A stretch of 8,214 bases of DNA from Escherichia coli (GTDB taxonomy: Bacteria; Pseudomonadota; Gammaproteobacteria; Enterobacterales; Enterobacteriaceae), in NCBI RefSeq assembly GCF_003334765.1, contig NZ_QOWT01000060.1; one strand, written 5' to 3'. The position numbers are program-made. Of this stretch, positions 3,001 to 8,035 are shown piece after piece. Each line of letters begins with the position of its first letter. Within the stretch, counting starts at the first letter, position 1.

Positions 3001-6000
3001 GGCGGGTCGATTATGGATAAGAGTAAGCGCCATCTGGCGTGGTGGGTTGTCGGGTTACTCGCGGTGGCGGCTATCGTGGCGTGGTGGCTGTTGCGCCCGG
3101 CAGGTGTGCCGGAAGGCTTTGCTGTCAGTAATGGGCGCATTGAAGCGACGGAAGTGGATATTGCCAGCAAAATTGCCGGGCGTATCGACACCATTCTGGT
3201 GAAAGAAGGCCAGTTTGTTCGCGAAGGTGAAGTGCTGGCGAAGATGGATACTCGCGTGTTGCAGGAACAGCGACTGGAAGCCATCGCGCAAATCAAAGAG
3301 GCACAAAGCGCCGTTGCTGCCGCGCAGGCTTTGCTGGAGCAACGACAAAGCGAAACTCGTGCCGCACAGTCGCTGGTTAATCAACGCCAGGCAGAACTGG
3401 ACTCCGTAGCAAAACGTCATACGCGTTCCCGTTCACTGGCCCAACGAGGGGCTATTTCTGCGCAACAGCTGGATGACGATCGCGCCGCCGCTGAGAGCGC
3501 CCGAGCTGCGCTGGAATCGGCGAAAGCTCAGGTATCGGCTTCTAAAGCGGCTATAGAAGCGGCACGCACCAATATCATTCAGGCGCAAACCCGCGTCGAA
3601 GCGGCACAAGCCACTGAACGGCGCATTGCCGCAGATATCGATGACAGCGAACTGAAAGCCCCGCGTGACGGACGCGTGCAGTATCGGGTTGCCGAGCCAG
3701 GCGAAGTGCTGGCGGCAGGCGGTCGGGTGCTGAATATGGTCGATCTCAGCGACGTCTATATGACTTTCTTCCTGCCAACCGAACAGGCGGGCACGCTGAA
3801 ACTGGGCGGTGAAGCCCGGCTGATCCTCGATGCCGCGCCAGATCTGCGTATTCCTGCAACCATCAGTTTTGTCGCCAGTGTCGCCCAGTTCACGCCAAAA
3901 ACCGTCGAAACCAGCGATGAACGGCTGAAACTGATGTTCCGCGTCAAAGCGCGTATCCCACCGGAATTACTCCAGCAGCATCTGGAATATGTCAAAACCG
4001 GTTTGCCGGGCGTAGCGTGGGTGCGGGTGAATGAAGAACTTCCGTGGCCTGACGACCTCGTGGTGAGGTTGCCGCAATGACGCATCTGGAACTGGTTCCC
4101 GTCCCGCCTGTCGCGCAACTGGCGGGCGTGAGCCAGCATTATGGAAAAACCGTTGCGCTGAACAATATCACTCTCGATATTCCGGCCCGCTGTATGGTCG
4201 GGCTGATTGGCCCGGACGGCGTCGGGAAGTCGAGCTTGTTGTCGTTGATTTCCGGTGCCCGCGTCATTGAACAGGGCAATGTGATGGTGCTGGGCGGCGA
4301 TATGCGCGACCCGAAGCATCGCCGCGACGTCTGCCCGCGCATCGCCTGGATGCCGCAGGGGCTGGGCAAAAACCTCTACCACACCTTGTCGGTGTATGAA
4401 AACGTCGATTTTTTCGCTCGCCTGTTCGGTCACGACAAAGCGGAGCGGGAAGTGCGAATCAATGAGCTGCTGACCAGCACCGGGTTAGCACCGTTTCGCG
4501 ATCGTCCGGCAGGGAAACTCTCCGGCGGGATGAAGCAAAAACTTGGGCTGTGCTGCGCGTTAATCCACGACCCGGAACTGTTGATCCTTGATGAGCCAAC
4601 AACGGGGGTTGACCCGCTCTCCCGCTCCCAGTTCTGGGATCTGATCGACAGTATTCGCCAGCGGCAGAGCAATATGAGCGTGCTGGTCGCCACCGCCTAT
4701 ATGGAAGAGGCCGAACGCTTCGACTGGCTGGTAGCGATGAATGCCGGAGAAGTGCTGGCAACTGGCAGCGCCGAAGAGCTACGGCAGCAAACGCAAAGCG
4801 CTACGCTGGAAGAAGCATTTATAAATCTGTTACCGCAAGCGCAACGCCAGGCGCATCAGGCGGTAGTGATCCCACCGTATCAACCTGAAAACGCAGAGAT
4901 TGCCATCGAAGCGCGCGATCTGACCATGCGTTTTGGTTCCTTCGTTGCCGTTGATCACGTTAATTTCCGCATTCCACGCGGGGAGATTTTTGGTTTTCTT
5001 GGTTCGAACGGCTGCGGTAAATCCACCACCATGAAAATGCTCACCGGACTGCTGCCCGCCAGCGAAGGTGAGGCGTGGCTGTTCGGGCAACCGGTTGATC
5101 CAAAAGATATCGATACCCGCCGTCGGGTGGGCTATATGTCGCAGGCGTTTTCGCTCTATAACGAACTCACCGTGCGGCAAAACCTTGAGTTACATGCCCG
5201 TTTGTTTCACATCCCGGAAGCGGAAATTCCCGCAAGAGTGGCTGAAATGAGCGAGCGTTTTAAGCTCAACGACGTTGAAGATATTCTGCCGGAGTCATTG
5301 CCGCTCGGCATTCGCCAGCGGCTTTCGCTGGCGGTGGCGGTGATTCATCGCCCGGAGATGTTAATCCTCGATGAGCCTACTTCTGGTGTCGATCCGGTGG
5401 CGAGGGATATGTTCTGGCAGTTGATGGTCGATCTCTCGCGCCAGGACAAAGTGACTATCTTCATCTCCACCCACTTTATGAACGAAGCGGAACGTTGCGA
5501 CCGCATCTCACTGATGCACGCCGGAAAAGTGCTTGCCAGCGGTACACCGCAGGAACTGGTTGAGAAACGCGGAGCCGCCAGTCTGGAAGAGGCATTTATC
5601 GCCTATTTGCAGGAAGCGGCAGGGCAGAGCAACGAAGCCGAAGCGCCGCCCGTGGTACACGACACCACCCACGCGCCGCGTCAGGGATTTAGCCTGCGCC
5701 GTCTGTTTAGCTACAGCCGCCGCGAAGCGCTGGAACTGCGACGCGATCCAGTACGTTCGACGCTGGCGCTGATGGGAACGGTGATCCTGATGCTGATAAT
5801 GGGTTACGGCATCAGTATGGATGTGGAAAACCTGCGCTTTGCGGTGCTCGACCGCGACCAGACCGTCAGTAGCCAGGCGTGGACACTCAACCTCTCCGGT
5901 TCCCGTTACTTTATCGAACAGCCGCCGCTCACCAGTTATGACGAGCTTGATCGTCGGATGCGTGCGGGCGATATCACGGTGGCGATTGAGATCCCGCCCA

Positions 6001-8035
6001 ATTTCGGGCGCGATATCGCGCGTGGTACGCCTGTGGAACTCGGCGTCTGGATCGACGGAGCGATGCCGAGCCGTGCTGAAACGGTAAAAGGTTACGTGCA
6101 GGCCATGCACCAGAGCTGGTTACAGGATGTGGCGAGCCGACAATCGACACCCGCCAGCCAAAGCGGGCTGATGAATATTGAGACGCGCTATCGCTATAAC
6201 CCGGACGTAAAAAGCCTGCCAGCGATTGTTCCGGCGGTGATCCCGCTTCTGCTGATGATGATCCCGTCAATGCTAAGCGCCCTTAGCGTGGTGCGGGAAA
6301 AAGAGCTTGGGTCGATTATCAACCTTTACGTGACCCCCACCACGCGTAGTGAATTTTTGCTTGGTAAACAGTTGCCATACATCGCGCTGGGGATGCTGAA
6401 CTTTTTCCTGCTCTGCGGCCTGTCGGTGTTTGTGTTTGGCGTACCGCATAAAGGCAGTTTCCTGACGCTCACCCTGGCGGCGCTGCTGTATATCATCATT
6501 GCCACCGGAATGGGGCTGCTGATCTCCACCTTTATGAAAAGCCAGATTGCCGCCATTTTCGGAACGGCGATTATCACGTTGATCCCGGCGACACAGTTTT
6601 CCGGGATGATCGATCCGGTAGCTTCGCTGGAAGGGCCTGGACGTTGGATCGGCGAGGTTTACCCGACCAGTCATTTTCTGACTATCGCCCGCGGGACGTT
6701 CTCGAAAGCGCTGGATCTGACTGATTTGTGGCAACTTTTTATCCCGTTGCTGATAGCCATCCCGCTGGTGATGGGCTTAAGTATCCTGCTGCTGAAAAAA
6801 CAGGAGGGATGATGCGCCATTTACGCAATATTTTTAATCTGGGTATCAAAGAGTTGCGCAGTCTGCTCGGTGATAAAGCGATGCTGACGCTGATTGTCTT
6901 CTCGTTTACGGTGTCGGTGTATTCGTCAGCGACCGTTACGCCAGGATCGTTGAACCTCGCGCCGATCGCCATTGCCGATATGGATCAATCGCAGTTATCG
7001 AACCGGATCGTTAACAGCTTCTATCGTCCGTGGTTTTTGCCACCGGAGATGATCACCGCCGATGAGATGGATGCCGGACTGGACGCCGGACGCTATACCT
7101 TCGCGATAAATATTCCGCCTAATTTTCAGCGTGATGTCCTCGCCGGACGCCAGCCGGATATTCAGGTGAACGTCGATGCCACGCGCATGAGCCAGGCATT
7201 TACCGGCAATGGGTATATCCAGAATATTATCAACGGTGAAGTGAACAGCTTTGTCGCGCGCTACCGTGATAACAGCGAACCGTTGGTATCGCTGGAAACC
7301 CGGATGCGCTTTAACCCGAACCTCGATCCCGCGTGGTTTGGCGGGGTGATGGCGATCATCAACAACATTACCATGCTGGCGATTGTATTGACCGGATCGG
7401 CGCTGATCCGCGAGCGTGAACACGGCACGGTGGAACACTTACTGGTGATGCCGATAACGCCGTTTGAGATCATGATGGCGAAGATCTGGTCGATGGGGCT
7501 GGTGGTGCTGGTGGTATCGGGATTATCGCTGGTGCTGATGGTGAAAGGTGTACTGGGCGTACCGATTGAAGGCTCGATCCCGCTGTTTATGCTGGGCGTG
7601 GCGCTCAGTCTGTTTGCCACCACGTCAATCGGCATTTTTATGGGGACGATAGCGCGTTCAATGCCGCAACTGGGGCTGCTGGTGATTCTGGTGCTGCTGC
7701 CGCTGCAAATGCTTTCCGGTGGTTCCACGCCGCGCGAAAGTATGCCGCAGATGGTGCAGGACATTATGCTGACCATGCCGACGACACACTTTGTTAGCCT
7801 CGCGCAGGCCATCCTCTACCGGGGTGCCGGATTCGAAATCGTCTGGCCGCAGTTTCTGACGCTGATGGCAATTGGCGGCGCATTTTTCACCATTGCGCTG
7901 CTGCGATTCAGGAAGACGATTGGGACAATGGCGTAAATACAATTGCCCGATGCGTAAGCTTATAGGGACTACGCATCGGTGCAATTTATTGAATTTTAGT
8001 TGTTTTTAGGCCGGATAAGGCGTTTATGAACTGAC

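Follow-up and report, generated by a model that had tools for sequence, protein, structure and literature searches.

Overlaps of 4 nt (-4) and then of 1 nt (-1) are the commonest among same-strand gene pairs of E. coli, where stop-to-start distances between -8 and +6 nt account for 707 of 2,987 pairs (PMC10666635). The -4 class (ATGA or GTGA) of termination-reinitiation pairs is represented by E. coli hyfHI, astDB and menDH, described by Huber et al. 2019; there, coupling was seen in four of the five native E. coli -4 pairs examined, and removal of the Shine-Dalgarno (SD) sequence lowered reinitiation in four out of five (PMC6728339). The -1 class (TGATG or TAATG) includes trpE/trpD, the first translational coupling to be described, and coupling efficiency peaks at distances from -4 to +3 nt (PMC12548453). 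With respect to the encoded machinery, the closest described relatives of the locus studied here are the membrane-fusion-protein-dependent ABC-2 exporters of the YbhG-YbhFSR type, which combine an adaptor and a double ATPase with two ABC-2 permeases.

The window, i.e., the whole stretch of 8,214 nt of Escherichia coli DNA that was analysed (contig NZ_QOWT01000060.1), carries the yhiJ-yhiY-yhiI-rbbA-yhhJ region (Table 1). Here yhiI, rbbA and yhhJ resemble the YbhG-YbhFSR type in encoding an HlyD/RND_mfp adaptor, two ABC_tran domains and two ABC2_membrane units in one operon, whereas they differ from it in that RbbA unites both ATPase domains with one permease in a single protein and YhhJ provides the second permease. 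YhiI scores above the cut-off of the NCBIfam model RND_mfp (TIGR01730). RbbA, in which Pfam recognizes two ABC ATPase domains fused to one ABC-2 permease domain, belongs to the NCBIfam equivalog NF033858 with a whole-protein score of 1596.6 bits (cut-off 1050), and YhhJ aligns to positions 539-906 of the RbbA model, its permease half. These family-model matches predict that RbbA and YhhJ are partners, and the domain architecture points to an RbbA:YhhJ ratio of 1:1 with a multimeric adaptor; a structure look-up returned no solved structure for RbbA or YhhJ. The role of RbbA as a 'ribosome-bound ATPase' is contested, and one key paper has been retracted (PMC12169533). Taken as a whole, and with the yhhJ start at 6812, the best explanation is that yhiI, rbbA and yhhJ form a single efflux-pump operon with its cistrons joined by minimal stop/start overlaps, which we consider probable.

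Table 1 Coordinates of genes, junction elements and candidate start codons in the yhiI-rbbA-yhhJ region (positions in the window).
Feature	Coordinates	Strand	Description and basis
yhiI CDS	3013..4080	+	HlyD-family periplasmic adaptor, 355 aa; ORF table and RefSeq annotation
GAGGT, SD-like for rbbA	4065..4069	+	on yhiI Val-Arg(AGG)-Leu codons; 7 nt before ATG 4077
ATGA, -4 nt junction	4077..4080	+	rbbA ATG 4077-4079 overlaps yhiI TGA 4078-4080; sequence, ORF table and RefSeq
rbbA CDS	4077..6812	+	911 aa; ORF table and RefSeq annotation
GTG opening the mechanical ORF	6728..6730	+	rejected as yhhJ start
AGGAGG, SD for yhhJ	6802..6807	+	RbbA C-terminal Gln-Glu-Gly codons CAG GAG GGA
First ATG of the ATGATG pair	6809..6811	+	A of Gly GGA plus TG of the stop; probable by-product, at most a minor alternative start
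rbbA stop TGA	6810..6812	+	sequence, ORF table and RefSeq
yhhJ CDS	6812..7936	+	second ATG as start; 374 aa, ABC-2 permease; RefSeq, K-12 and divergent strain

The initial annotation had described stop/start overlaps at both junctions, each with an SD-like motif inside the gene upstream, and in this general form the description holds. At the yhiI/rbbA junction (junction 1) the ATGA overlap it reported is read directly in the sequence and kept as NTGA in orthologs, namely in 53 of 76 orthologous loci (44 with ATG, 9 with GTG), a conservation that spans phyla and by which the overlap is judged to exceed chance. ATG 4077 is the first possible rbbA start, with an in-frame stop 27 nt upstream, and the next candidate, a GTG at +51, lies past position 12, where the match to the RbbA family model begins. 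On this sequence evidence ATG 4077 is the real rbbA start, and the -4 overlap is genuine. The SD-like GAGG reported inside yhiI, ahead of rbbA, is likewise present, but at 4065-4068 and not at 4066-4069, which reads AGGT. Its AGG (at 4066) is the sole AGG among the 31 Arg codons of yhiI, and GTGAGG(T/C)TG is kept in Enterobacterales, with AGG or AAGG at the equivalent site in many other orthologs. A local ACCUC/GAGGU hairpin at this junction is not conserved, even inside E. coli. Junction 1 therefore shares with the pairs of PMC6728339 the ATGA overlap, a suitably spaced SD in the upstream gene, predicted partner products and cross-phylum conservation; coupling was measured in those pairs, whereas the likeness of yhiI/rbbA to them is one of sequence.

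The rbbA/yhhJ junction (junction 2) reads GGATGATGCGC and has the layout AGGAGG-G-ATG-ATG with two in-frame ATGs, the second of which, at 6812-6814, overlaps the rbbA stop by 1 nt within TGATG (6810-6814). The AGGAGGG motif inside rbbA was correctly located at 6802-6808 by the initial annotation, and AGGAGG is separated by 1 nt from 6809 and by 4 nt from 6812. In the 4.9-kb operon GGAGG occurs once, as the SD before yhhJ. RefSeq/PGAP places the yhhJ start at 6812, with one base shared by the rbbA end and the yhhJ start, both in K-12 and in a 95.7%-identical strain, and gene calls with -4 at junction 1 and -1 at junction 2 are also found in contigs of Salmonella, Klebsiella, Hafnia and Serratia. 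The corresponding 374-aa YhhJ is present on at least 1000 contigs, a 375-aa form on 79 (mostly older records) and a 402-aa form on 2. Agreement among annotation pipelines is not independent evidence, as these have rules in common.

The longest of these forms would start at GTG 6728, the first start codon past an in-frame stop, and would overlap rbbA by 85 nt. A 402-aa product is indeed given in two deposited records, but Pseudocitrobacter and most Citrobacter lack a start codon at this site, most other orthologs have no candidate there, and the 27-residue extension lacks a counterpart in the aligned orthologs. In addition, no SD lies upstream, and long overlaps are rare and poorly coupled (PMC12548453). 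This reading deserves next to no credence, and its dismissal in the initial annotation is borne out by the lack of conservation as a start and by the 2 contigs set against at least 1000 for the 374-aa form.

More weight has to be given to ATG 6809, which the initial annotation had favored as the main yhhJ start, so that both junctions would be ATGA (-4) and YhhJ would be a protein of 375 aa with a Met-Met-Arg N-terminus. The ATGA is physically there at 6809-6812, -4 is the commonest overlap class (PMC10666635, PMC12548453), and this start is used in the older records on 79 contigs, including the original K-12 'hypothetical 41.1K protein' entry. It is also the nearest start after termination at the rbbA stop, and if post-termination scanning were the only mechanism, the ribosome would choose the start closest to the stop (PMC12548453); ATG 6809 takes a smaller P-site shift than 6812 (2 nt versus 5 nt), and some or even most reinitiation may occur there. 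Across genera, the position is occupied by ATG or GTG in Escherichia, Klebsiella, Pseudocitrobacter, Kluyvera, Citrobacter and Serratia, GTG being the codon in Citrobacter and Serratia. However, the equivalent codon is no start codon in Salmonella and Shimwellia (GTA), Hafnia (CTA) and Morganella (ATA), where the downstream ATG persists and TAATG is kept in all four. What stands at 6809 follows from the wobble base of the last RbbA codon and the choice of stop codon: the A is the synonymous third base of Gly GGA and varies in orthologs, and any TGATG junction with A, G or T before the TGA yields an apparent -4 'start'. Judged in this way, the ATGA at junction 2 does not go beyond chance.

SD spacing bears on the same choice. 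Spacing between SD and AUG is optimal at 4-9 nt, and tRNA binding is destabilised when fewer than 4 nt separate the SD from the P-site codon (bioRxiv 10.1101/2020.04.16.045807); the 1-nt spacer of 6809, compared with 4 nt for 6812, therefore disfavors the former. The 4 nt of 6812 lie at the lower limit of this range. Where an ortholog offers one start candidate only, GGAG precedes it by 5-10 nt (mode 7-8); a spacing of 2 nt, which is that of 6809, is seen only in loci that also have an alternative at 5 or 8 nt.

The 6812-equivalent ATG is the modal yhhJ start over about 80 species; in 31 orthologous loci no other in-frame start candidate competes with the codon at this position, in about 17 more it is among the candidates, and at none of the junction 2 loci among about 80 orthologs is a -4 start the only candidate. 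Comparison within the species cannot separate 6809 from 6812, because both ATGs are present and the junction is near-invariant in E. coli (a 60-nt junction query matched 5,414 genomes, with identity of at least 99% in 4,537). A look through published data turned up neither measured start sites nor coupling measurements or synthesis rates for this operon; yhhJ, rbbA and yhiI are missing from the accessible portion of the supplements of the TRAINSPOTTER N-terminomics study, and the accessible part of the Onc112/retapamulin preprint mentions yhiY as the only one of the region's genes.

Considering the codons in the four genera, the RefSeq start and the SD spacer together, we regard ATG 6809 as quite unlikely to be the main start of yhhJ. 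The start is most likely ATG 6812, giving a -1 TGATG overlap and a protein of 374 aa. Of the second ATGA overlap that had been proposed, the string itself stands and its use as a -4 overlap is not supported; the initial annotation had named orthologs lacking the overlap as evidence that would count against it, and the comparison of start sites found it missing in four genera. With the start at 6812, junction 2 is like the trpE/trpD type, the TGA of rbbA sharing its A with the yhhJ ATG and TAATG standing in Salmonella, Hafnia, Shimwellia and Morganella. A single base thus ends the stop and opens a conserved start, whereas the comparative evidence speaks against the overlapped NTG of an NTGA arrangement being a real start. 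Unlike other -1 pairs, the E. coli junction has an additional in-frame ATG 3 nt upstream, and outside Enterobacterales rbbA and yhhJ are usually separated by a gap of +1 to +3 nt, which makes the -1 overlap a lineage-specific tightening. A programmed frameshift fusing RbbA to YhhJ, considered by analogy with the SD-plus-UGA arrangement of prfB, was rejected upon sequence inspection, as the sequence lacks a slippery heptamer and GGA in the P site could not re-pair at +1.

In both cases an SD lies inside the upstream ORF (GAGGT 7 nt before 4077, AGGAGG 4 nt before 6812), and translational coupling along yhiI-rbbA-yhhJ is plausible by analogy with the behavior of known -4 and -1 gene pairs (PMC6728339, PMC10666635, PMC12548453). 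A ribosome terminating on the upstream gene would stop within a few nucleotides of the next start, and would then reinitiate or free the site for a new 30S subunit, assisted by the SD within the upstream gene. Production of adaptor, ATPase-permease and permease would thereby be linked, with the relative amounts decided by the efficiency of each junction and not fixed at 1:1:1. The 'fixed stoichiometry' put forward in the initial annotation is over-stated, because coupling ties expression together and sets no ratio.

Alternatively, the embedded SDs, chiefly AGGAGG, might recruit free 30S subunits de novo at each gene, the overlaps then reflecting packing without coupling. AGGAGG is a near-consensus SD, and its region appears structurally unmasked (fold z-score -0.5). 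Folds of 81 nt and 130 nt over the starts of both junctions were no stabler than shuffled sequences (z from -0.5 to +1.2), and the junction folds, not above shuffled controls (z = -0.5 and +1.0), give no evident masking of the starts. Moreover, bioBF, one of the five E. coli -4 pairs tested, initiated de novo and uncoupled (PMC6728339). The other four of these pairs were coupled, however, and in nearly all of about 80 orthologs the stop-to-start distance does not leave the interval from -4 to +3 nt, a pattern that points to proximity being under selection. Complex subunits are furthermore enriched in overlapping or close pairs (30.4% vs 6.8%, PMC10666635), and RbbA and YhhJ are predicted to be such partners. 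We consider independent initiation unlikely and coupled translation of the three genes a plausible reading.

The SDs also deserve attention as coding sequence. CAG GAG is conserved across the family at the RbbA C-terminus, with GAG in 61 of 67 loci where 38 were expected (P = 1e-10). Based on this GAG excess, the lone AGG in yhiI and the operon-unique AGGAGG, the SD codons (AGG in yhiI, CAG GAG in rbbA) look selected at the nucleotide level. A further proposal can be made tentatively and is rather less than an even bet, namely that the strictly conserved C-terminal Gln-Glu of RbbA (...KKQE-x-stop) is kept partly as the yhhJ SD in several phyla or more, and that in Escherichia and close relatives ATGATG permits both Met-Met-Arg and Met-Arg isoforms of YhhJ.

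In conclusion, the stop/start-overlap arrangement of yhiI-rbbA-yhhJ is ordinary and already annotated, and its significance past annotation is small; the outcome is a yhhJ start best placed at 6812, in line with current RefSeq, rather than at 6809 or 6728. An 'ATGA' at a gene junction is by itself weak evidence, since any TGA stop that follows A, G or T in register will look like a -4 overlap. Nevertheless, with the rbbA and yhhJ SDs both residing in conserved C-terminal codons of the upstream proteins, the locus would offer a clean case of dual coding at operon junctions.

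A 3.1-kb query spanning both junctions matched 5,414 of 5,426 complete E. coli genomes, where the genes are yhiI (HlyD-family adaptor), rbbA and yhhJ, and the K-12 annotation places them in the order yhiJ/yhiL-family genes, yhiY, yhiI, rbbA and yhhJ. RbbA reached 1596.6 bits with its NCBIfam equivalog model, for which the cut-off is 1050, YhhJ matched the permease half alone of the same model (positions 539-906), and YhiI passed the RND_mfp adaptor model. Precomputed Pfam assignments on orthologous contigs show the arrangement found in E. coli, with an adaptor followed by two ABC_tran plus one ABC2_membrane domain and then by ABC2_membrane, which is the architecture of an adaptor-dependent ABC-2 exporter. 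The name rbbA reflects a function under dispute, and 2025 saw the retraction (PMC12169533) of the 2011 PLoS One paper that tied RbbA to the ribosome and to YhjD; a search of the PDB returned no structure of RbbA or YhhJ. The overlaps within yhiI-rbbA-yhhJ are an ordinary, already annotated operon feature, and the initial annotation, made from the sequence alone, is confirmed in part as an observation and supported in part as an interpretation.

Coordinates of features at the two junctions (window positions)
Feature	Position	Remark	Source
yhiI	3013..4080		ORF table
rbbA	4077..6812		ORF table
yhhJ-frame ORF	6728..7936		ORF table
GAGGT, complementary to 16S 3' end	4065-4069	7 nt before rbbA ATG	sequence
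first yhhJ-frame ATG	6809-6811		sequence
rbbA stop TGA	6810-6812		sequence
second in-frame yhhJ ATG	6812-6814		sequence

The flanks were also inspected. The 37-aa small protein YhiY (2837-2950), discovered by initiation-complex ribosome profiling, with peak spacing used to pick its start from three AUGs (bioRxiv 10.1101/511675), is encoded 62 nt upstream of yhiI. Further upstream lie two YhiJ/YhiL-family (DUF4049) reading frames, 110-763 and 1025-2647, the former being the counterpart of a K-12 gene whose annotation carries a frameshift; close to the 5' end of the window an indel appears to separate it from the K-12 record, and when the two are compared without gaps, out of register at the outset, about 3% of positions mismatch. 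On the 3' side, 7937-8214 is identical to K-12. The operon's 3' flank is an insertion point varying by strain, since K-12 has an ISEc1/ISAs1-like transposase (yhhI) and remnants of Rhs elements after yhhJ, and a divergent strain (L002, 5538-5947) has nikR there after 8 nt.

The sequence around the yhiI/rbbA junction, gtggtGAGGttgccgcaATGAcg, contains ATGA at 4077-4080 as first read, together with the GAGG motif, which lies at 4065-4068, one base to the left of the coordinates originally assigned to it. This junction is, as far as the compared sequences tell, a genuine and conserved 4-nt (-4) overlap, because NTGA occurs in 53 of 76 loci (44 ATG, 9 GTG) and no rbbA start earlier than ATG 4077 is possible, the frame being closed by a stop 27 nt upstream. 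A GTG at +51, the next in line, falls past the point at which the match to the RbbA family model begins (position 12). The overlap ranges from Enterobacterales through Pseudomonas, Nitrosomonas and sphingomonads to one Desulfocapsaceae MAG, YhiI usually ending in Val/Ile-Arg/Lys-Leu/Val-Pro-Gln-stop and AGG or AAGG typically standing about 10 nt ahead of the rbbA ATG. The AGG at 4066-4068 is the sole AGG among the 31 Arg codons of E. coli yhiI. This codon forms the core of the rbbA Shine-Dalgarno (SD) sequence; Salmonella, Klebsiella, Hafnia, Serratia, Citrobacter, Kluyvera and Shimwellia share it, and Providencia has AGA.

At the rbbA/yhhJ junction, aaaacAGGAGGGATGATGcgc, AGGAGGG does occupy 6802-6808, yet two adjacent yhhJ starts are available, one in a -4 overlap (ATGA) and one in a 1-nt (-1) overlap (TGATG). 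RefSeq/PGAP lets the end of rbbA and the start of yhhJ share base 6812 in K-12 and in one 95.7%-identical strain, yielding 374 aa, and the genes called in contigs of Salmonella, Klebsiella, Hafnia and Serratia likewise have -4 at the first junction and -1 at the second. Exact-sequence look-up of public products retrieved all three possible forms: the 374-aa product in at least 1000 contigs, the 375-aa product (start 6809) in 79 and the 402-aa product (start 6728) in two. As the 375-aa entries include the old K-12 'hypothetical 41.1K protein (rhsB-pit intergenic region)', the start at 6809 favoured initially is an older annotation, now superseded.

For comparison across species, the rbbA stop and all in-frame yhhJ start candidates were located in 80 loci with YhhJ relatives, from contigs representing one genome per species, and in four enterobacterial contigs. 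The codon aligned with 6812 is the sole candidate in 31 loci and one among several in about 17 others, and in none of the loci compared does a -4 start stand alone as a candidate; outside Enterobacterales the two genes are usually separated by +1 to +3 nt (48 single-candidate loci). Within E. coli the junction is nearly invariant and carries both ATGs. At the position equivalent to 6809, Escherichia, Klebsiella, Pseudocitrobacter and Kluyvera have ATG, while Citrobacter and Serratia fonticola have GTG; the codon is GTA in Salmonella and Shimwellia, CTA in Hafnia and ATA in Morganella. Read in the rbbA frame, this triplet joins the wobble base of the final sense codon (GGA/GGG/GGC/GCG) to the leading two bases of the stop (TG/TA), and it is a start solely if a TGA stop coincides with A or G at the wobble base. 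The four TAA-stop genera, Salmonella, Shimwellia, Hafnia and Morganella, thus lack this start and retain the downstream ATG, overlapping the stop as TAATG. Orthologs without the overlap are what the initial annotation had itself listed as refuting its reading.

The SD itself argues in the same direction. Among single-candidate loci, yhhJ starts 5-10 nt, mostly 7-8 nt, after the last G of GGAG; in E. coli the distance is 5 nt for 6812 (4 nt past AGGAGG) and 2 nt for 6809 (1 nt past AGGAGG), and a 2-nt distance is always accompanied by an alternative at 5 or 8 nt. The optimum SD spacing is 4-9 nt, and an SD less than 4 nt from the P-site codon destabilises tRNA binding (bioRxiv 10.1101/2020.04.16.045807). 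Given the orthologs without a 6809 start, the RefSeq start and the 1-nt spacer, the view that both junctions share the same ATGA overlap with yhhJ beginning at 6809 is most likely wrong. A literature search for yhhJ N-terminal or initiation-profiling data found none. We consider 6812 the probable main start and 6809 an unlikely one, although a scanning model, which prefers the start closest to the stop (PMC12548453), would not disfavour 6809; dual use, with products differing by one N-terminal Met, is possible. The early rejection of GTG 6728 held up in the ortholog comparison and alignment: this codon is not a start in Pseudocitrobacter and most Citrobacter, most remaining orthologs have no candidate there, and the 17 homologs aligned show nothing equivalent to its 27-residue extension.

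The yhhJ SD is dual-coded in the conserved RbbA protein tail (6795-6808 and relatives' loci), because the C-terminus ...Leu-Lys-Lys-Gln-Glu-x-stop recurs in nearly all orthologs (about 80 species), its codons CAG GAG furnishing AGGAG, and among 67 non-redundant loci 61 use GAG for the Glu. The GAG/GAA usage of the individual genes predicts 38 (Poisson-binomial P = 1e-10), with shared ancestry a caveat, though the loci share just 60-70% protein identity; this codon choice points to selection at the nucleotide level. AGGAGG at 6802 is also the sole GGAGG within the 4.9-kb operon. In Comamonas aquatica (L062, 4050-4500), where 409 nt are inserted between rbbA and yhhJ, the tail keeps Gln-Glu as CAA GAA, which removes the SD, and yhhJ is preceded by a GGGGAA of its own. 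This one natural control suggests that the SD drives the choice of CAG GAG. In Pandoraea iniqua (L035, 4363-4500), RbbA ends in Gln-Asp (CAG GAC), the SD is absent, and a YhhJ with an apparent 44-residue proline-rich N-terminal extension begins at an ATGATG overlapping the rbbA stop.

Translational coupling in yhiI-rbbA-yhhJ may soundly be inferred from published pairs, since -4 and -1 nt overlaps are the commonest same-strand configurations in E. coli, with distances of -8 to +6 nt in 707 of 2,987 pairs (PMC10666635), four of five native -4 pairs tested were coupled, SD removal reducing reinitiation in four of five (PMC6728339), and coupling is best at -4 to +3 nt (PMC12548453). Close pairs (-8 to +10 nt) are also enriched for complex subunits (30.4% vs 6.8%; PMC10666635). 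De novo initiation at the strong AGGAGG before yhhJ is a possible alternative. The RNA-unfolding type of coupling is unsupported, because folding at both junctions was no stronger than in shuffled sequence (z from -0.5 to +1.2). A local hairpin GACCUC/GAGGUU (4054-4070), in which ACCUC 4055-4059 pairs with the rbbA SD, was rejected as an anti-SD-like mask and is probably due to chance, since other E. coli strains (L002, L003) have G in place of the paired C at 4059 and shuffled sequence folds at least as well.

The fixed stoichiometry proposed initially goes beyond the evidence, as coupling ties expression together without setting ratios. The architecture suggests one RbbA per YhhJ, with the adaptor probably present in higher copy number.
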